NCBI GenBank assembly: GCA_039938575.1
Contig: JBDUUJ010000079.1
Coordinates: 10,067 to 74,066 of the forward strand
Source of the DNA: Nitrososphaera sp.
Lineage (GTDB): Archaea > Thermoproteota > Nitrososphaeria > Nitrososphaerales > Nitrosopumilaceae
DNA: 64,000 bases
Direction of reading: 5' to 3'
Under the pieces are notes generated by a model. That model had not been told where the DNA came from. It was given only the letters and a program-made list of their open reading frames with translations, and did not search any database. Positions 3,702-47,154 of this stretch are shown piece by piece (positions within the stretch are counted from its first letter, which is position 1; the number at the start of each line of letters is the position of its first letter). Both the position numbers and the translations under genes were made by a program.

Positions 3702-5446
3702 GTGAGCAAATTGAATGGTATTGTGAGAAATGTCCAGCGAATGAAAACCAAAACTGTGGACCATTTCCAGAAAACAACCAATTATTTCCACAAGTTAAGC
3801 AGCTCCACATTACACACAGAGGATGGAAGAAGGGAAGACAACCATCCATTTTAGAGCTTGGCGATAATTGGCCTAAAGAAAACTCGGCAGGGTTAATGAA
3901 TAATGTCATGGAATGGTGTAAAAGACAAAAGAAATTGAATTTTGAAAGCATTCAAAATTATCTGAATAATGTAATCAAAAACGATCCTAAGCTTGTCAAA
4001 AAAATACCTTACGCTTTCTTTTCTGCATACACCAATAACCCAATTAACCTAGGAATAATGGCGGACACGTCAGAAGGGAAAACATACGCTGTTATCAAAG
4101 TCGCAGAAATATTCCCAAAAAATGACATTATTATAGTTGGCAGAATGTCTCCAACGGCATTAATCCACCAACGAGGGATTTTAGTTGATCCTAATGGAAA
4201 CCCTATTGAAGAAAAAATACATGATTTGGAATCACAATTATCACAAGTCAAAACACCTGCAGAAAAACTCGTAATAAAAAACGAAATTAAGGCTCTTCTT
4301 AGAACCGCAAAAAACCTAATCGATTTGAGTGATAAGATTCTTTTATTCCTAGAACCACCAAATCCACAACTTTGGGATATTCTAAAGCCAATTCTTTCTC
4401 ACGATAAATACGAAATTGAGTACAAGACGACCCAAACAGATGGGTCTCTGAAGGTAAAAGAGTCCATAATCCGAGGTTTTCCTGCTGTTGTTTTTTGTTC
4501 AGCTAAAAACGAAGCTAGTAACCCGATCTGGAAGGAGATTGAGACTAGATTCGATATTGTAAGTCCTAACACAGAGGTGACAAAGTACAAAGAAGCTAAC
4601 AAATTCACAGCACAAAGGCTAAGCATTCCAGACTTTGCAAGATCTATGATAGAGAATCCCGATGAGAAAGAACTTGCAAAAGACTCTGTAAAAGAAATTA
4701 AAGTCTGTATTCAAAGCTATTGCAAAAATACAAAAAATCCAATCTGGAATCCTTTTGACCGTATAATTGGAGAATGTTTTCCATCAAATCAAGGAATAAC
4801 GATGAGACAGTGTGATAGGTTTCTGAGGTATTGTAATCTATCAACACTCATCAATTCTAAAGACCGTTTCAGAATAGAATTTGAAACAAAAAACGGAGAT
4901 GTAGAATCCTATCTGATATCAACCATATCAGATATTGATGTGGCAATAGATCTTACTGGTGCTGTTAGTCCGATTCCGCCAGAACGCCTCAAGTTTCTAA
5001 AAGACATCTTTGAGCCTGCCTTGGCAGAGATACTTGATGATTCAGGTATAACCACAGAGAAACTTGCCTTAAAGTACACTGAGATATATAAAAAGGAGAC
5101 AACTCCAAAGAAGATTCTAGAAAACTATGTCAGACCTTTGATGGATTATGGCATTCTGGAAGCTTTAGAAGATCTATATGACAGAAGGAGACGCTTATAC
5201 AGGTATGCAGCTAAGCCCCATACTAACAATCTGGAAATTATTCGACAACGCATAATCGAACAATCGAATAATGATGATTTATTCATATGGTCTTATATAG
5301 ATGAGCTTGAAAAAAATTCGATTGGTCGGGGTAAAATCAGAGCTATTTTGGATCCAAAAGGAAGACCTGAAGGCTGGAACCTGATACAAAAACAGATAGT
5401 GAAAACCTCTTCTGAATCGAATAATTTACAGGTGATTCACGCGTGA
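3698..5446 (+). CDS. AAA+/P-loop ATPase, putative replication helicase (N-terminal Zn finger, C-terminal wHTH)
   Basis: CEKC..H..H N-terminus; Walker A-like ADTSEGKT, Walker B-like ILLFLE, Arg-finger-like ETRF; MCM-like spacing. Confidence 0.7.
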   Translation: MSEQIEWYCEKCPANENQNCGPFPENNQLFPQVKQLHITHRGWKKGRQPSILELGDNWPKENSAGLMNNVMEWCKRQKKLNFESIQNYLNNVIKNDPKLVKKIPYAFFSAYTNNPINLGIMADTSEGKTYAVIKVAEIFPKNDIIIVGRMSPTALIHQRGILVDPNGNPIEEKIHDLESQLSQVKTPAEKLVIKNEIKALLRTAKNLIDLSDKILLFLEPPNPQLWDILKPILSHDKYEIEYKTTQTDGSLKVKESIIRGFPAVVFCSAKNEASNPIWKEIETRFDIVSPNTEVTKYKEANKFTAQRLSIPDFARSMIENPDEKELAKDSVKEIKVCIQSYCKNTKNPIWNPFDRIIGECFPSNQGITMRQCDRFLRYCNLSTLINSKDRFRIEFETKNGDVESYLISTISDIDVAIDLTGAVSPIPPERLKFLKDIFEPALAEILDDSGITTEKLALKYTEIYKKETTPKKILENYVRPLMDYGILEALEDLYDRRRRLYRYAAKPHTNNLEIIRQRIIEQSNNDDLFIWSYIDELEKNSIGRGKIRAILDPKGRPEGWNLIQKQIVKTSSESNNLQVIHA

Positions 5447-5463
5447 TTTTACGCACAGATCAA

Positions 5464-5499
5464 AATATTCGATTGTGCGATTTTGAGGAATCGAATATT
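5464..5499. repeat. 11-bp perfect inverted repeat (AATATTCGATT-N14-AATCGAATATT)
   Basis: Read directly from the sequence, immediately downstream of the ATPase. Confidence 0.75.
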
Positions 5500-5582
5500 C
5501 TACACCAAGAAATGATTTCAGACACCAAAAAAGAAAAAGGAATCCTCACCTACGAGCAGTTCTTCAGGAAACTATTGAAGAT

Positions 5583-6119
5583 TTGATTCCAGAATCCCCT
5601 ATTGACCTCTTCTTCCATCCTGATGACTACCTTCCAAAGTGGATCAAAGACTTTGTTGAAAAAAAGGGGAGTCCTCAGCTACGTAGAGACTTTCGGGAAC
5701 TTTTTGGCGATATGTACCCTGAGGATCAGAGACCCAAGGATCAGAGACCAGAGGATCAAAGTCCGCAGGATCAGAATCAAACCGGACCAGAAATTCAGAG
5801 AAAGCGTGGCGGACCGTATTCAAAACATGTAAGAGAAGTACGAAGAAAGATCATTCAAGAACACATAAAATTCAATCCCAGAACAAATGAGTATTATGTG
5901 GAGAATAAATCAGAACTGGCACGACTGCTTGGCGTTAACCGCCACACCATAGAGGCTGACATCAAGGCAATCGAAGAAGAGAGACTCGCCAGATTCGAGG
6001 AAGCATTGAGAAGAGATATGGAAGCAAGGAGAGAGGCATACAGGAGATTGAAACAGGAGGACATAAACGATATTGATTGGGGTGAGGTCTATTACGGACC
6101 TCAGGGTGGTGAGGACTGA
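5583..6119 (+). CDS. HTH-domain protein with pentapeptide tandem repeat
   Basis: 'NKSELARLLGVNRHTIEADIKAI' HTH; (P-E/K/Q-D-Q-R/S/N)x4; TTG start overlaps the stop of a 24-aa ORF (5512-5586). Confidence 0.65.
   Translation: MIPESPIDLFFHPDDYLPKWIKDFVEKKGSPQLRRDFRELFGDMYPEDQRPKDQRPEDQSPQDQNQTGPEIQRKRGGPYSKHVREVRRKIIQEHIKFNPRTNEYYVENKSELARLLGVNRHTIEADIKAIEEERLARFEEALRRDMEARREAYRRLKQEDINDIDWGEVYYGPQGGED
5718..5777 (+). repeat. 4 x 15-bp tandem repeat (CCN SAG/AAG GAT CAR ANN) in coding sequence
   Basis: cctgaggatcagaga/cccaaggatcagaga/ccagaggatcaaagt/ccgcaggatcagaat. Confidence 0.85.
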
Positions 6120-6305
6120 CTGTCTAGTTATTTTTTCCAAACTGCCCTAATTTCGTTCGTGATTTTCCGAAAAATTCTAGTATTTTGTCTAGTTTGGGTA
6201 TTCCCACAATGATGCAGCTTTCTGAGATCAAGACACTATAATTAAAGGGAATTATACAACAACCTCGATAGATTATAAATGTGCTAATTAAAAGTTCTGT
6301 TAAGA

Positions 6306-7256
6306 TTGAATCTTAAGATAACGGTTTGCATCTTCCTTGTTTTTGCCATCTCTTTTTCCTCGTTTGCAGTTTTTGCCAATACATTTCCCACGGGGTTAGA
6401 TTTTTCACAAAAGAATTTTTTTGCTAAAGAGTTTAGTGATAAGAAAAAGATCATTTTACTTGGTTCTAGCCACGTAGGACAATTGAATACAACTTACATT
6501 ACAAATTACCTAAATAAAAATGATATTGAAGTGTTTAACCTAGCTTATAATAGTGATACTCCTGAACGAAGAAGTCGCTTTCTTAATGAAATGATTGCAC
6601 TAAAACCAACTGTGGTAATATATGGAGTTTCATACAGAGATTTTCAAACCCCGTTTAATGAAAGTCCTCTTCCAGATCCAAAGTATTTTTTTAACAATTT
6701 ATCAAACGAACTAATGAAGAATGATATTACAACTAATCCAAAATTAATAACTCTAAATTTTATTAGAAATGTTCAGAACTCTTTTGTGGTGTTAAGGACG
6801 GAAGAGAAAATATTAACTTTTGATAACACACCATTTTTTTCATACAATATAGAAACACAGACACAAATAGCAAACGAAATTGAGTTGAAAAAACAGTCAC
6901 AAAGATCAGAAGCATCAAAGTTTAGTCTTGAAGCGCCAGATAAAAATAAACAAGCTGAGGCACTAATTAATTTGATTAATGAATTTGAACAAAACAATAT
7001 AAAAGTTGTATTGTTCCTTACACCACTGAATAAATATTATCTTGCGGAGATTCCTGATTCACAACACATAATTTTTAATTCCATAATTAACCATGTAATA
7101 AATGAAACAGGTGTATCGGTTTATGATTTAAGATACAAGTATAGCGAAATGCCAATCTGGGCAAACATTAGTCATGTTGCATTTAATAAGGATTCTTTGA
7201 TCTACAGTGAAGATATTGCAAAAATTATTGAAAAAGAGATCTTAGATGCTATTTAA
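6306..7256 (+). CDS. Secreted SGNH/GDSL-like (AlgJ/DltD-type) protein
   Basis: Signal peptide; block I LLGSSH, FNLAYNS, C-terminal 'WANISHVAFN'; overlaps the MBOAT start. Confidence 0.65.
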   Translation: MNLKITVCIFLVFAISFSSFAVFANTFPTGLDFSQKNFFAKEFSDKKKIILLGSSHVGQLNTTYITNYLNKNDIEVFNLAYNSDTPERRSRFLNEMIALKPTVVIYGVSYRDFQTPFNESPLPDPKYFFNNLSNELMKNDITTNPKLITLNFIRNVQNSFVVLRTEEKILTFDNTPFFSYNIETQTQIANEIELKKQSQRSEASKFSLEAPDKNKQAEALINLINEFEQNNIKVVLFLTPLNKYYLAEIPDSQHIIFNSIINHVINETGVSVYDLRYKYSEMPIWANISHVAFNKDSLIYSEDIAKIIEKEILDAI

Positions 7257-8709
7257 CACAATAGATTTTGTGATTTTCTTTATAATTGTTTTAACAACAT
7301 TAACCGTTATTAAAAAAAGAAGATTTCAGCATCTATTTCTTCTAATAGCAAGTTACTTTTTTTTCTATTATTCCAGCAATTATTTGATAGTTCTTTTGTT
7401 GATAACCACCATATGGGATTTTTACTTTGGTGAAATAATTTATAATGCAAAAACTGTAAAAACTAAAAAATTAGCTCTGGTAACAAGTTTAGCGGGGAAT
7501 TTAGGTCTGTTAGGCTTTTTTAAATATGCGGATTTTGCCATAACTCAGTTTAATTTTCTTGGGAGTTATTTTGAACTGGAGCATATTCCCCATCTGAATT
7601 TGGCATTACCAATTGCAATTTCGTTTTATACGTTTCATTCCATTACATACACTGTAAGCATATATCGTGGTCAGCTAAGACCGGTAAAATCATTTACAGA
7701 CTATGCTATCTTTGTTGCATTTTTCCCGCAGCTGGTTGCAGGGCCAATTCTCCGTGCCAAAGAATTTCTCCCACAATTAAGAGAAAAACTAGATGTTGAG
7801 GTAGGTATACGCCTGCGACAGATAATAATTCACAATCAAAATCTCAAATACGGAATAACAATGATGGCGCTTGGATTTTTCAAAAAGATGTTTTTTGCAG
7901 ATAATATCTCTCCTTTTGTAAACGAGGTTTTTGCAAATCCATTAGGGTTAGATTCATTTGCTATTGTCTTGGCCACGATAGGATTTGGAATTCAGATTTA
8001 TTGTGATTTTTCAGGCTATTCAGATATAGCTATTGGTGCAGCTTTGATTATGGGTTTTAAGATTCCCATAAATTTTAACAAACCGTACTTTGCTACTTCA
8101 CCAGCTGATTTTTGGAGAAGGTGGCACATTTCACTGTCTACGTGGCTTCGTGATTACCTGTACATACCACTTGGTGGTAACAAAAAATCCAAACTACGGA
8201 CTTATCTTAACTTGATGATTGTAATGTTTCTTGGTGGTCTGTGGCATGGGGCTGCATGGAATTTTGTACTCTGGGGCATTCTACATGGAGTCTATCTTGC
8301 CTGCCATAGATTTATTGTAAACAAGTTTCCTCATTTAACTTCAAACCAGTTCTTTAAAAGTAATTTAGGCAAAATAATTACGATCCTGATTACACAATAT
8401 CTGGTATTTTTAGCGTGGATACCATTTAGAATTGAAAATACGCAGCATATGCTTTATACAATGCAAAAGTTTGTGATTTTAGATATCCACACACATGAGA
8501 TAACTTCGTTTATACTTTCACATAAATTACCGGTTCTTTTTATGATGTTATTTGTGATACTTCACATTTATTCATACAAAAAAAATATTTTAGATAGATT
8601 TGCTTCATTACATCTTCATTGGTGGACAATCTTTTTGCTTGTAATAATGCTGCTAATAATTTTCTTTTATGATGGAAATCCTGAAGACTTTGTATATTTC
8701 AGATTCTAA
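7246..8709 (+). CDS. MBOAT family O-acyltransferase (AlgI/DltB/PatA-like)
   Basis: LPIAISFYTF, FFPQLVAGPI, DFSGYSDIAIG, NFNKPY, DFWRRWHISLS, GLWHGA. Confidence 0.95.
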   Translation: MLFNTIDFVIFFIIVLTTLTVIKKRRFQHLFLLIASYFFFYYSSNYLIVLLLITTIWDFYFGEIIYNAKTVKTKKLALVTSLAGNLGLLGFFKYADFAITQFNFLGSYFELEHIPHLNLALPIAISFYTFHSITYTVSIYRGQLRPVKSFTDYAIFVAFFPQLVAGPILRAKEFLPQLREKLDVEVGIRLRQIIIHNQNLKYGITMMALGFFKKMFFADNISPFVNEVFANPLGLDSFAIVLATIGFGIQIYCDFSGYSDIAIGAALIMGFKIPINFNKPYFATSPADFWRRWHISLSTWLRDYLYIPLGGNKKSKLRTYLNLMIVMFLGGLWHGAAWNFVLWGILHGVYLACHRFIVNKFPHLTSNQFFKSNLGKIITILITQYLVFLAWIPFRIENTQHMLYTMQKFVILDIHTHEITSFILSHKLPVLFMMLFVILHIYSYKKNILDRFASLHLHWWTIFLLVIMLLIIFFYDGNPEDFVYFRF

Positions 8710-9010
8710 TGTTGTTTGCTCATAATGACAAATTTTGTTGCTGATTCCTCACACAATACGTTCATTGACGAGTTTATTTAGCAAGATTCTACATTATGAC
8801 ACTAGTTTAAACCACGTTTCGCATAATTAAAACCCATTTAGTTGATAATAGACCTTTTGCGCAATTAACGAAAATTTACGTACAATACGGGGAACCATAT
8901 CTGAATACGCTTGCAGGCATGCTTTTTTACCCAAACCAAAAAGCAAAAAAGGCGCTAACGAGATAATAAATCTATGACTAGATCTGATTTAAAAAATTCT
9001 CTCGAAACTA

Positions 9011-9701: not shown

Positions 9702-11342
9702 GTGTCAACCATACAAACCACCTCTGAAGGCATTCCGGTAATAGTTCTAAAGGAAGGCTCAAAACAATCAAGAGGGCGCGATGCACAGAAAAACAATATC
9801 AATGCAGCAAAAATCATTGCAGAGATAATCGCATCAAGTCTAGGACCACGAGGCATGGACAAGATGCTAGTTGACTCTATTGGCGACATCACCATTACAA
9901 ACGACGGTGCAACTATTTTAAAGGAGATCGATGTACAGCATCCTGCAGCCAAGATGATGGTCGAGGTTGCAAAGGCCACTGACAGTGAAGTCGGAGACGG
10001 CACCACATCTGCAGTTGTAATTGCAGGTTCGCTTCTGGAAAAGGCCGAAGAACTAATTGACAACGAGATTCATCCAGTAATAATCGCAGACGGCTACAAA
10101 AAGGCTTCAAAGAAGGCAATATCGTTTCTTTCCGAAATCGCAAAAAAAATCGATGTAAATGACAAGCAAACATTGGAAAAAATAGCACGCACCTCAATGC
10201 TTACGAAACTCGTTGCAGTAGAGGCAGCAGACCTTGCAAAAATAGTAGTTGAAGCAGTTCATGCAGTTATGGAAAAAAAGGATGGAGAAAACAGAGTCAC
10301 AATAAGCAATGTCAAGGTGGAAAAAAAGACTGGTGGCTCCATCTCAGACAGCAGTCTTATCAACGGCATAGTGCTTGACAAAGAAGTAGTCAATAACAAC
10401 ATGCCAAAAAAAATTCAGAATGCCAAAATCGCGTTAATTTCGGCTCCACTCGAAATAGAAAAGACCGAATTCGATGCCAAAATAAACATCTCCACTCCAA
10501 ACCAGATAAAATCGTTCATGGAGGAAGAAAATCAGATTCTGCGAGAGATGGTTGACAAGATAACGAAGACAGGTGCAAACGTAGTTCTATGTCAAAAGGG
10601 AATTGACGACATTGTACAGCATTACTTGGCAAAAGCTGGAATTTTGGCGGTTCGTAGAATCAAAGAAAGCGACATGGCAAAGCTTGCAAAGGCTACAGGC
10701 GGCAGGATAGTCGGCAATGTGGAGGATCTTACAGACAAAGACTTGGGTCTTGCACAAAATGTTGAGGAAAAACAGATTGAAGAGGACAACTGGACGTTTG
10801 TTGAGGGTTGTAAGAATCCAAAGGCTGTAACTTTTCTTATTAGAGGCGGTTCGCAGAGGGTCGTAGATGAAGTAGACAGAGCTGTCCACGATGCGCTCAT
10901 GGTGGTCAAAGATGTGATAGAGAGACCTTACTTTGTGCCTGGCGGAGGAGCCCCGGAGGCATACATTGCAACAAAACTCAGGATGTGGGCGCAGTCATTA
11001 TCTGGAAGGGAGCAGCTCGCGGTTGAAAAGTTTGCAGGAGCTCTTGAGGCAATACCTATTTCTCTTGCAAGAAACGCCGGTATGAACCCAATTGATGCGA
11101 TAACACAGATTAGGGCAAAGCAGAGCGCCGGTGAGAAATATACTGGAGTTGATGTCATAAATGGCACCATAGGGGACATAGAAAAAATAGATGTGTTTGA
11201 GCCGGTTCGCGTAAAAGAACAGGTGATCAAATCTGCAACAGAAACCGCAAACATGATACTTCGAATCGATAATGTTGTAGCAGTATCAAGAGCGCCTGCC
11301 CCGTCTGGACAAACGCCTAATCAACCACCACCTATGTATTAG
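9702..11342 (+). CDS. ths: Thermosome (group II chaperonin) subunit
   Basis: [32 protein letters not shown] motifs. Confidence 0.97.
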
Positions 11343-42515: not shown

Positions 42516-43319
42516 TTAAAATTCCTTTAGCTTACTTTCCTGGAACGGCTCTGATTCATACCAGCAGTACCTAAAATAATCAAGACACCATTCATGAAAC
42601 ATTGGATCCGTGCTGTAGAACGCTTCTGTTATGTCATACTCCCCGTTGATGTTTGGGAATGATATTGTTGCTTCTTTTTCATTGAGAACGATCGAAGTCT
42701 GAATCGTCTTTGTCATCTTTCTTTCGATTAAACCCTTTTCGATTAGCTTGTTGTAGTTGAGCTTTTGCAGCAGCTTCTTTCGTCCCTTTGGCACTATTGT
42801 AGATTCTGCAAGAATATAGTTGAACTTGATACCTTTTTCGATTCTTTTTACCTTTGGCTCGATTATGTCGAGTGGTATTTCAGCTAGCATCTCGTAAATG
42901 TACTCGTTTGCGTTCTTGTATACGGACTTCCATTGCTCAAGTACCTTGGTGACACCTTTGATATAATGCGAGTTTGCAAGCTGGCCTATTCTCATTATGA
43001 ACTTTGGTGGAATGTCGCCAAAGTTGTGATCCTCAAAGTATTTTCTGTTCTCAGAGAGAAAAATTATTGACGGTATTTGAGAACAGATAGTTTTTCCGTA
43101 GGTGGTGAGCGCGTAATAGCCGTCTAGGTCTTTTGTGATAAAACCACCGTCTTCGAGTCGCGCAAAGTTTCTGTGTACCTCCTGTGCCGTAGCACCTATT
43201 TCCTTTGCCATCGTAGTAACTTTGGATTTTTTCTCAAGAAGCTTGAATATGATCTGCAACCTCTGCTGACTTGATAACTCCAAGAAATTGTTCGCAGCCT
43301 CTTCATACAGGTTTACCAT
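42516..43319 (-). CDS. ArsR-like wHTH regulator with C-terminal effector domain (thaumarchaeal family)
   Basis: RLQIIFKL..EVHRNFARL..YALTTYG; C-terminal LNEKEA..FHEWCLDYF. Confidence 0.85.
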   Translation of the reverse strand: MVNLYEEAANNFLELSSQQRLQIIFKLLEKKSKVTTMAKEIGATAQEVHRNFARLEDGGFITKDLDGYYALTTYGKTICSQIPSIIFLSENRKYFEDHNFGDIPPKFIMRIGQLANSHYIKGVTKVLEQWKSVYKNANEYIYEMLAEIPLDIIEPKVKRIEKGIKFNYILAESTIVPKGRKKLLQKLNYNKLIEKGLIERKMTKTIQTSIVLNEKEATISFPNINGEYDITEAFYSTDPMFHEWCLDYFRYCWYESEPFQESKLKEF

Positions 43320-43443
43320 TTTACAACAGATCTAATTTGTTGCCATAAAAAAACGATTGGGATCTACAATTTACACTCGTTTGTAGTTGGCACTAGGCTC
43401 AATTATTAGCATTATTTATTAATTTAATTTGCTCAGAATCAAT

Positions 43444-44277
43444 GTGGTATATCTGCGTACCAAAACAGTCAAAGGTGAGAAATATGCTTATTTGGTTCGA
43501 AGCGTCTGGGATCCAAAGAAAGGTACGTCAAAGCAAGAAACAATCAAGTACCTTGGAAAGGCATCGGAGATAACAAAGGAAGACATTCCTGTAGAGTACA
43601 GAAACGAGCCAAGTGTGATTTCATTCCTTGCATCAGATGAAACAATGGATTTGAAGAAAAAAGAAGAGATGCTATCAAAGCTAAGAGAACAGCTGTTTCG
43701 ATTTTTCATGCAAGGCGACATCGAAGGTGCAAAGAAGCTTTATGAAAATTACAGGACAAATTCTGGCACTTCCAGTTTTTTTGAGAAGATCCTCACGCCG
43801 ACCATGTACCACGTAGGGGATCTTTGGGCAAAAAACAAGATAAGTATCGCAGACGAGCATGTGTGTAGTAATGTAGCAACAACCCTAGTCAAGATAATTT
43901 TTGGTAGAAACACGACTCAGCCTAAGAAAAAAACCGTTCTGATTTGTACGCCGGAAGGGGAACAGCACTGCCTTGGAGCCAACATCTTGGAGTCATATCT
44001 TTCATGCAATGGGTTTAAAATCTATAATTTATCACCATCAGAGCCTCACGAATCAATTGTAAAGTTTGTCGAGTCTACAAAGCCAGATGCGGTGTTCGTT
44101 TCAGTGACGCTTTCGGACAACATCAAACCAGCACAAAGACTCATTCGAAAAATCAAAACTAGATCCACTGTGCCTATTTTTGTGGGTGGACAGGCAGTAA
44201 AATATGATGGTGCTGATTTTGACGCCAGGGTGATACGCGACACGAGTCTGAAAAATCTCTCAAAACTGCTTAACTAG
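43444..44277 (+). CDS. Cobalamin-binding (CarH/LitR-like) protein with atypical N-terminal DNA-binding-like domain
   Basis: W-x9-EH (WAKNKISIADEH) and ExHxxG (EQHCLG) motifs; N-terminus YLRTKTVKGEKYAYLVRSVWDPKKGTSKQETIKYLG. Confidence 0.85.
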   Translation: MVYLRTKTVKGEKYAYLVRSVWDPKKGTSKQETIKYLGKASEITKEDIPVEYRNEPSVISFLASDETMDLKKKEEMLSKLREQLFRFFMQGDIEGAKKLYENYRTNSGTSSFFEKILTPTMYHVGDLWAKNKISIADEHVCSNVATTLVKIIFGRNTTQPKKKTVLICTPEGEQHCLGANILESYLSCNGFKIYNLSPSEPHESIVKFVESTKPDAVFVSVTLSDNIKPAQRLIRKIKTRSTVPIFVGGQAVKYDGADFDARVIRDTSLKNLSKLLN

Positions 44278-44346
44278 TTTCCAAGGCTTAAAAAAATTAG
44301 CACTAGGCAATATAATTATCACTAGTTTATATAATAAAATCACGAA

Positions 44347-45099
44347 TTGAACTCAATGAAACACAAACAAAACACATCCTGCGATGCGACCAAAATCAAG
44401 ATACTTGCATTGGTTGTTGCAGCCTCGCTGCTCTTTAGTATGACTGCAGTGCAGGTTGCCCATGCTGACCACACTAAAGAAAAAAAACAGATCAAAAAAG
44501 AATCCAAAGACAAAAAGATTAATGAAAAAAAGATAAAAAAAGAAATCAAAAAGCCAAGTCAGAAAAAACCTGTTGTTATCACAGAGACAAGAACATCTGC
44601 AAACACTATCGAATCACAACTAAAAGCTTGCAAAGAAAAACAAACAGAGCGTGAGCAGTACGAATGTGAAAAACAAATCAAAACACAACAAGAGCTTGAA
44701 ACATTCAAACAAAAATCAACAAAATACCAAGTAGGGCCGATTACTTTCTATTATGCAGGTGCAAAGGTTGAAAAAAGCGGCGGAAAAGACATTGTAAACC
44801 TCAGATTCCTGGTGGAAAACACCGGCTCAAAGGACAACGTGACGTTGTACTGCACAGGCCCTGCAGTGTGTAATTATGATGTATCCGACGGTAAGACCAT
44901 CTACAAGTACTCATCACAGGACTTTACCAACGGTCAAGTTGTGCTAAAGCCAGGACAGTCAAGATACATCAACATGTTGTTTGGTCCTGCTATAGGTTAT
45001 GGAAGCTACGTTGATTTCAAGTTTGACCCAACAAAACAGTACACATTCAATATAAGGGAGCCATGGGGCTCTGCCAGCATACCACTCAACCTACAGTGA
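44347..45099 (+). CDS. Secreted protein, Lys-rich linker + C-terminal beta-sandwich
   Basis: Signal peptide (VQVAHA); C-x12-C pair; C-terminal Ig-like domain. Confidence 0.7.
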   Translation: MNSMKHKQNTSCDATKIKILALVVAASLLFSMTAVQVAHADHTKEKKQIKKESKDKKINEKKIKKEIKKPSQKKPVVITETRTSANTIESQLKACKEKQTEREQYECEKQIKTQQELETFKQKSTKYQVGPITFYYAGAKVEKSGGKDIVNLRFLVENTGSKDNVTLYCTGPAVCNYDVSDGKTIYKYSSQDFTNGQVVLKPGQSRYINMLFGPAIGYGSYVDFKFDPTKQYTFNIREPWGSASIPLNLQ

Positions 45100-46724: not shown

Positions 46725-46824
46725 TTGTTGACGTATTTTTCTTTCTTTATTTACAGATTGGGGTTAGCACTAGAGTTTTAATTTTGGCGTGTTTTATATA
46801 TTGAAACTTGGAACAGATCTTCAA

Positions 46825-47154
46825 ATGCGCGTTTGGGATGTGTCCCCAAGTATTTTATGTAAAAACCATTTGTTGGGCGAACATCGCGAGATACACGCAA
46901 TTTGGTCGATTCTCACTACAGACAAAAAAGGTTATTTGCATCATCCAGAGACAATTAGGTGGAAAGGCAGACTAAATGCGTTGTACCACAGACACAACAT
47001 GCTCGCTACCGAAATGAGCCGGCGTGGATATAAACACCAAAGCCCACTAGACAGAAAATTTGCAAATGGTAGTAAGATACAAACAGAATTCGTCGATTCG
47101 CCACAAAAACAAATCAAGATATTAAAGCGGAAAAACTGTGATTGTCGAATTTAA
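46825..47154 (+). CDS. Pyrimidine dimer DNA glycosylase/endonuclease V family
   Basis: MRVWD..LCKNHLLGEHREIH..HPETIRW..RHNMLATEMSRRGYKHQSP. Confidence 0.85.
   Translation: MRVWDVSPSILCKNHLLGEHREIHAIWSILTTDKKGYLHHPETIRWKGRLNALYHRHNMLATEMSRRGYKHQSPLDRKFANGSKIQTEFVDSPQKQIKILKRKNCDCRI

Follow-up and report, generated by a model that had tools for sequence, protein, structure and literature searches.

A stretch of 64,000 nucleotides from Nitrososphaera sp. (family Nitrosopumilaceae; positions 10,067 to 74,066 of contig JBDUUJ010000079.1, assembly GCA_039938575.1), here called the window, carries at 43444-44277 a gene for a CarH-like protein that joins a CarH-type B12 (cobalamin) module to an N-terminal domain homologous to that of the transposases of IS1634 insertion sequences. 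A conserved two-word operator precedes this gene and a small set of others, and its word recurs at the ends of IS1634 elements. On balance, analogy with CarH favors a cobalamin-dependent transcription factor of ammonia-oxidizing archaea that acts as a B12-dependent repressor relieved by light, making the protein a strong candidate to be the first light-sensing gene switch of these organisms. Nitrification in the sea and in soils is driven by ammonia-oxidizing archaea, which also supply much of the cobalamin in the ocean and suffer inhibition by light; to our knowledge no photoreceptor or light-responsive regulator is known from them. We rate as new the pairing of a known sensor with a new DNA-binding output, the appearance of this regulator type in a new domain of life, and a defined operator. 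A literature search found no paper joining Nitrosopumilus-type archaea and CarH, no earlier description of the CarH-like protein and no paper on the IS1634 N-terminal domain. B12 photoreceptor modules with non-MerR partners are recognized, most of them uncharacterized (PMC10979010).

The open reading frame (ORF) proposed in an earlier reading of the DNA made without database searches (the sequence-only reading) exists as described. Homologues number more than 300, every one beginning MVYLR; a longer, TTG-start form is not used by relatives. Relatives are found in at least 199 species genomes, and in Nitrosopumilaceae this is a single-copy core gene in a conserved chromosomal context, with synteny kept in 80 loci. 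None of the public (JGI) labels, 'methanogenic corrinoid protein MtbC1', 'histidine kinase', 'cobalamin-dependent protein' and occasionally 'MerR family light-induced regulator', fits the protein. Metatranscriptome contigs from sediment cover the gene of locus L031, its upstream region excepted, and carry no strand or start information; the window is absent from all RNA runs searched. The parts of the gene are listed below, with residue invariance taken from an alignment of 31 homologues (52-84% identity).

43444..44277, + strand: CarH-like gene, from the ORF list; 277 amino acids (aa), GTG start, stop included, coordinates checked.
43444..43563, + strand: N-terminal beta domain, residues 1-40; AlphaFold2 strands 2-9, 12-23 and 28-39; aligned to IS1634 by hhalign.
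43564..43650, + strand: conserved linker, residues 41-69 (..DIPxxYRNDP..); D47, P49 and S64 invariant, I48 and Y52 at least 90%.
43651..43911, + strand: four-helix bundle (B12-binding_2, Pfam PF02607; alignment to Thermus thermophilus CarH, TtCarH); W128 at 43825-43827, E138-H139 at 43855-43860.
43933..44217, + strand: Rossmann B12-binding domain (Pfam PF02310); E173-Q-H175-C-L-G178 at 43960-43977.

The B12 module is recognized by sequence and by structure. Pfam matches B12-binding_2 (E 3.3e-13) and B12-binding (E 1e-14) in the protein and no other family. Both cobalamin motifs of CarH, W-x9-EH and ExHxxG, which the sequence-only reading had called intact, are present, and W128, E138, H139, E173, H175 and G178 are invariant. 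The adenosyl-pocket motif W-x9-EH aligns residue for residue with Thermus CarH, and E173-x-H175-x-x-G178 aligns with the GErHeiG segment of TtCarH; H175 is predicted to be the lower axial cobalt ligand. The top PDB matches by sequence are the photocobilins 8j2x and 8j2w and CarH. The AlphaFold2 model (predicted local distance difference test, pLDDT, 86) has the four-helix bundle and Rossmann domain as expected, and when it is compared with the PDB by Foldseek all 50 of the 50 matches listed are B12 photoreceptors, the best being photocobilin 8j2w (E 3e-14); they include 8jbs, the Chloracidobacterium MerR-B12 domain, and TtCarH (E about 1e-12, target-normalized template modeling (TM) score 0.8). 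W-x-EH and E/DxH mark light-dependent CarH-like receptors (PMC10979010). Pfam, motif invariance, Foldseek and this published statement together confirm the observation of a CarH-type module, which, judged by alignment and model, probably belongs to the CarH/photocobilin kind of photoreceptor.

The label 'methanogenic corrinoid protein MtbC1' would instead place the protein in a methyltransferase system as its corrinoid protein, a role that the JGI annotations and weak NCBIfam matches to corrinoid proteins might suggest. These matches score far under their cut-offs (44.5 vs. 215; 39 vs. 370), and the corrinoid-protein and MetH models rank below the best NCBIfam model, which is CarH (equivalog NF052513; 63.5 bits, its cut-off of 400 not reached). 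No methyltransferase partner occurs in any neighborhood examined, the best structural matches are photoreceptors, and the N-terminal domain and operator have no place in such a role, which we regard as highly improbable.

The other end of the protein differs from CarH: in place of a MerR winged helix it has an all-beta domain of the IS1634-transposase type. Residues 1-65, which contain the N-terminal string quoted in the sequence-only reading, are the best conserved stretch of the protein, and Y3, R5, K7, V9, Y14, Y16, L17, V18, S20, W22, K25, Q31, K35, Y36, L37 and G38 are invariant within the beta domain. Searched against Pfam and NCBIfam, the N-terminus has no match even at E<=10, MerR and other helix-turn-helix (HTH) models included, and AlphaFold2 gives three beta strands; the MerR HTH is indeed missing, as had been claimed. 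Folded alone (18 homologues), the N-terminal piece is modeled at pLDDT 89 as three long antiparallel strands, then short helical turns.

Kinship with IS1634 emerges from several comparisons. A beta-domain profile searched against 1.84 billion (1.84e9) representative proteins gives 352 matches; the B12 module is carried by 52 of the best 150, and P0240 is matched at E 2.4e-7. P0240 is a genuine IS1634 transposase, with DDE_Tnp_1 and 215 bits to NF033559 (cut-off 100). The N-terminal alignments of CarH-like proteins and IS1634 transposases pair in hhalign with a probability of 98.5% (E 1.5e-15), and BLASTP against archaeal IS1634 transposases gives 55% identity across 42 residues. The relatives of P0240 all retain the domain, e.g., MSFVRTKTIRGRKYQYLVESVWDPVKKQPRQRVVKYLG, a recognizable version is kept by its more distant IS1634 relatives, and the pattern shared with IS1634, M-x-[FY]-[VI]-R..K..G..Y.YLV.S.WD...K..RQ..[VI].YLG, is found in the CarH-like protein. 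The likeness proposed in the sequence-only reading is thereby borne out. Its Arm-type alternative fared otherwise: Arm-type and AP2 folds are rejected, with no Pfam Arm or AP2 model, no significant Foldseek match and no integrase or AP2 entry among the 50 matches listed. A likeness to PC4 is weak (Foldseek probability 0.91, TM score 0.41).

Unlike an IS1634 transposase (NF033559; P0240, P0271-P0287), the single-copy CarH-like gene encodes no DDE catalytic domain (the body of PF01609/NF033559 was not found, and only B12 domains follow the N-terminus). It also has no flanking terminal inverted repeats; the repeats nearby are direct and lie in promoters. Beyond transposases and B12 modules, the beta domain is fused to HNH endonucleases (P0218, P0256) and an AbiEii nucleotidyltransferase (P0241) and occurs in tandem in the two-domain P0221. 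Every non-B12 partner of an assigned kind works on nucleic acids or comes from a mobile or defense system, and the domain looks like a widespread unnamed DNA-targeting module. The homology fits the idea of a domesticated transposase domain; in view of the HNH, AbiEii and other fusions, origin from a transposase is likely, but the direction is inferred. The domain is also present in proteins of about 170 aa of no assigned family (within P0224-P0270). Eight weak partial matches to the N-terminal profile in P0228, a repetitive, low-complexity protein of 942 aa, are probably a compositional artefact.

The same fusion of beta domain and B12 module exists in high-GC archaea, and the linker motif recurs as DVPxEYR in distant high-GC homologues (P0202, P0212 and others). 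Two archaeal contigs of 66% GC, L211 (gene at 8001-8885) and L212 (8001-8864), carry the fusion with a DVPxEYR linker; in L211 the gene begins 3 nucleotides (nt) past an MMPL transporter gene, and in L212 there is an NmrA/epimerase gene 1.5 kb downstream. Neither contig shows a clear site with the operator matrix of Nitrosopumilaceae.

That operator was defined from 80 loci, one genome per species and all Nitrosopumilaceae, which with the window make 81 sequences. In 78 of the 81 upstream regions the sequence TTRGCACTAK-N9-TTRNCAYYA is followed directly by a TATA box (TTAAATA or TTATATA), and the first base of the operator lies 56-59 nt before the start codon (78/81 loci). Both words have a high information content, and that of the 9-nt spacer is close to zero. 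The words form a direct repeat 19 bp apart, and the proximal one occupies the position of the B recognition element (BRE), immediately upstream of the TATA box. This geometry implies mRNAs that are leaderless or nearly so. The window has exactly two full sites, both in promoters:

43387..43426, + strand: operator 1 with TATA box, CarH-like gene; matrix score 30.3 bits; half-sites TTGGCACTAG (43387-43396) and TTAGCATTAT (43406-43415), then TATTTATTAA; first base 57 nt before the GTG.
44297..44336, + strand: operator 2 with TATA box, downstream gene; matrix score 28.3 bits; half-sites TTAGCACTAG (44297-44306) and TTATCACTAG (44316-44325), then TTTATATAA.

The two-word matrix finds no site in 10 shuffles of the window, and across the 80 loci (870 kb) it finds 226 sites, against 0-2 in shuffles. 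An ORF begins 56-59 nt downstream at 142 of the 228 sites of the loci and window together. Operator 2 is present at the orthologous promoter in 20 loci of the genome set and in 15 metagenome contigs. Words of the TTAGCACTAG type occur four times in the window (0.34 expected), three of them at operator promoters. The fourth exact half-site, TTGGCACTAT at 42788-42797 (+), lies inside an ArsR-like coding region, lacks both a TATA box and a second word, and could be a chance occurrence. The shorter word GCACTAGGC, tried as a 9-mer with one mismatch, is unenriched (9 found vs. 7 expected), and the bipartite matrix was used instead.

The operator word also marks archaeal IS1634 elements, where TAGGCACTAT and TAGCCACTAG, in the terminal inverted repeats and at the transposase start, match the half-site. 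The limits of one element, 1728 bp long, follow from two identical copies that sit in different contexts (L203 1461-3188 = L204 1167-2894), and each of its ends reads ACCTGAATTTT..TATAGGCACTATG. These ends are inverted repeats of about 30 bp, in which TAGGCACTAT lies roughly 20 nt in from each tip. A third copy, together with an inverted one, forms a near-perfect palindrome, ATAGTGCCTA-T-TAGGCACTAT, that overlaps the transposase start codon; this suggests that the transposase is autoregulated by its own N-terminal domain. A GC-rich second lineage (L202) has TAGCCACTAGG near the start as well as at each end, and L205, of a third lineage, shows TTAGCCACTAC. When a half-site matrix built solely from ammonia oxidizers is scanned over IS1634 elements of about 1.8 kb each, the three best positions in L202, L203 and L208 fall at the left and right ends and in the transposase start region, and even the third-best score exceeds those of all 200 shuffles. 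Since L203 and L208 are close relatives, these elements represent two independent lineages, with a weaker third. Homologous domains are thus tied to the same word in two unrelated settings, as expected if the beta domain reads the GCACTA word. The proposal of a regulator, made from the sequence alone, gains independent support from the conserved promoter operator and from this shared word.

These observations bear on whether the operator is read by some other factor, e.g., a paralogue of transcription factor B (TFB) or an unlinked regulator, with the CarH-like protein as a target that works like AerR or as a corrinoid carrier. The BRE position of the proximal half-site would suit such a reader, as would the TFB paralogue genes near the CarH-like gene in several loci, the lack of a solved DNA-binding relative of the beta fold and the appearance of AerR among the PDB matches (7te2, E 6e-5). 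The AerR/PpaA antirepressors of purple bacteria also use a B12 module for light- and redox-linked gene control; they have no DNA-binding domain, AerR acts through CrtJ, and the match is far weaker than those to CarH or photocobilins. A second, identical word 19 bp upstream of the BRE position would be superfluous for TFB, and the other partners of the beta domain are nucleases and transposases. The presence of the same word in the inverted repeats and transposase start of elements whose transposases have the homologous domain is hard to explain unless the domain reads it. We therefore consider another reader quite improbable and infer that the CarH-like protein itself binds the operator.

The mechanism we propose follows CarH (class I LitR) of Myxococcus xanthus, Thermus thermophilus and Bacillus megaterium, AdoCbl-dependent light-sensing repressors with the same sensor module; AdoCbl is adenosylcobalamin. 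By this analogy the cofactor would be AdoCbl, the signal light, the effect repression and the active form an oligomer. The four-helix bundle with W-x9-EH would cap the Rossmann domain with its His-on ligand, and the beta-sheet domain of the first 40 residues would read the DNA word (T)TRGCACTA(G/T). Loaded with B12, the protein would oligomerize via its sensor module and bring at least two of its beta domains to the direct repeats. In the dark this oligomer would occupy both words and block TFB and the TATA-binding protein (TBP) at the BRE/TATA region; light would photolyze the Co-C bond, loosen the oligomer and release the promoters. The same arrangement would serve at the gene's own promoter and at those of a small regulon.

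The resemblance to CarH extends to an N-terminal DNA-binding part, as proposed here, joined by a linker, to an operator at the protein's own gene and to direct repeats that overlap core promoter elements. The TtCarH operator comprises three tandem 11-bp direct repeats (PDB 5c8e); here there are two repeats 19 bp apart. In the archaeal host, the machinery blocked would be TBP/TFB, not sigma-RNA polymerase. The photocobilins (8j2w, 8j2x, 8j2y; PMC10979010), which match the B12 module best in sequence and fold, likewise couple a portable photoactive B12 sensor to varied non-MerR outputs; they have a C-terminal globin-like bilin domain and control enzymes, whereas the CarH-like protein has a proposed N-terminal DNA reader and no bilin domain.

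What lies behind the operator speaks to the signal. Scans for regulon members covered 12-kb neighborhoods and a sample of metagenome contigs, and the list is partial. When the ORFs behind sites are clustered, the CarH-like gene accounts for 77 loci, a flavoenzyme of the amine-oxidase fold, closest to HpnE/phytoene desaturase, for 32, the exported family without a known domain to which the window's downstream neighbor belongs for 20, and an NAD-dependent epimerase/short-chain dehydrogenase/reductase (SDR) that has a membrane tail for 17. Operators also precede genes for small membrane proteins, for zinc-ribbon proteins and for a RudS-like protein (TudS-DUF1722), and a pattern scan of the metagenome contigs adds TspO/MBR, further membrane proteins and two proteins that resemble a type-2 NADH dehydrogenase and a cyclase. 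Around the regulator the genes form a compact island, [secreted][SDR][small transmembrane] < > [CarH-like][flavoenzyme] <. In the window three further features belong here:

44356..45099, + strand: exported or anchored 247-aa protein behind operator 2; proposed regulon member.
46764..46802, + strand: weaker operator-like site in the glycosylase promoter; perfect distal TTAGCACTAG at 46764-46773, degenerate proximal word TTTGGCGTGT and TATA box TTTTATATAT in the usual register; 61 nt before the ATG.
46825..47154, + strand: pyrimidine-dimer DNA glycosylase (repair of ultraviolet (UV) damage); Pfam Pyr_excise E 6.8e-28, ATG at 46825.

The 247-aa neighbor matches no Pfam or NCBIfam family; in 61 of the 80 loci it is found no more than 6 kb from the CarH-like gene. 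The glycosylase, whose presence nearby had been pointed out in the sequence-only reading and is confirmed by the Pyr_excise match, lies within 6 kb in 11 of them; its half-site promoter arrangement is repeated in L001 and L002, and in L023 and L074 the gene stands in an operon behind a full operator. It is a probable regulon member. In several Nitrosopumilus genomes (L052, L026, L065, L077, L061, L036), TFB-like and small zinc-ribbon genes precede the glycosylase gene by about 400 nt, and genes for a PPOX-class flavoprotein and a 104-aa membrane protein follow it; the TFB paralogue may belong to the regulator's island. In L081 (Nitrosopumilus sp. ECS24A2), an NreA-type DNA-repair gene (Nre_N/Nre_C; 5987-7144) and a stand-alone DUF1722 gene (5418-5990) lie 3-4 kb from the CarH-like gene.

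Bacterial LitR/CarH clusters hold photolyase, SDR and FAD-dependent oxidoreductase genes (PMC9758184), and RudS genes are often found within light-responsive operons (PMC11417400). With these parallels, the glycosylase, RudS-like, TspO, SDR and flavoenzyme content is more in keeping with stress from light or photo-oxidation than with B12 economy. The latter would apply if the protein were a dark sensor of cobalamin status that binds the operator only when B12-loaded or only when B12-free and tunes membrane and redox genes with no role for light. The intact B12 module is compatible with such a sensor, ammonia-oxidizing archaea are major cobalamin producers (PMC4303638), and many regulon members have no evident link to light. 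Yet no gene for cobalamin synthesis or transport or for a B12-dependent enzyme was seen behind the operator, and the window has no operator sites beyond the three near the CarH-like gene. W-x9-EH is characteristic of the photoreceptor subclass, and the regulon includes the UV-damage glycosylase, TspO and the RudS-like gene. A purely dark sensor is thus unlikely.

The divergent neighbor at 42516-43319 (-) is an ArsR-like winged-helix regulator of the HVO_A0261/FilR1 type (Pfam below cut-off). It adjoins the CarH-like gene in 8 of the 80 loci, in Nitrosotenuis-like genomes only, and was rejected as the operator reader on that count.

Several points weigh against a light-relieved repressor that itself reads the operator. 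Thermus CarH has a His after the Trp, H132, that serves as the upper ligand of the bis-His photoproduct, whereas in the homologues the position that follows W128 holds A, S, E, M, Q or I; photocobilins too lack this His and are photoactive nevertheless (PMC10979010). The isolated beta domain has no significant relative in the PDB by Foldseek (best E 0.15). The IS motif varies, and L205, L207 and L209 keep only ..ACTA.. (..ACTA(T/G)G in two lineages beyond the third). No photolyase or carotenoid pathway gene was seen behind the operator in the 12-kb neighborhoods and metagenome sample, and many regulon members are small membrane proteins of unassigned function. The BRE position of the proximal half-site makes a specialized TFB an alternative reader; no second copy of the beta domain was found in the window or any 12-kb locus, the regions scanned, and another protein with the domain may be encoded elsewhere in the genome. 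Finally, each functional step of the proposed repressor, from cofactor and light to oligomer and DNA binding, is argued by analogy.

With its operator and target genes defined, the CarH-like protein makes the question of light sensing in ammonia-oxidizing archaea directly testable. The uncharacterized N-terminal domain of IS1634 transposases gains a probable function and a DNA word, and the CarH-like protein would be one of the few prokaryotic examples in which a cellular regulator has taken over the DNA-binding domain of a transposase and preserved its specificity. It may also offer a compact all-beta DNA-binding output for the B12-based optogenetic toolbox. More tentatively, the DNA reader and its binding sites may have been domesticated together, with an IS1634-type element giving both the transposase N-terminal domain, which was then joined to a B12 photoreceptor module, and the inverted-repeat words that now serve as promoter operators; we hold this to be possible rather than probable. 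If it is true, the beta domain would represent a class of sequence-specific DNA-binding domain that is both new and widespread among archaea and bacteria, and a mobile element would have seeded a whole light-response regulon in a photoinhibited lineage that has long been without a molecular sensor.

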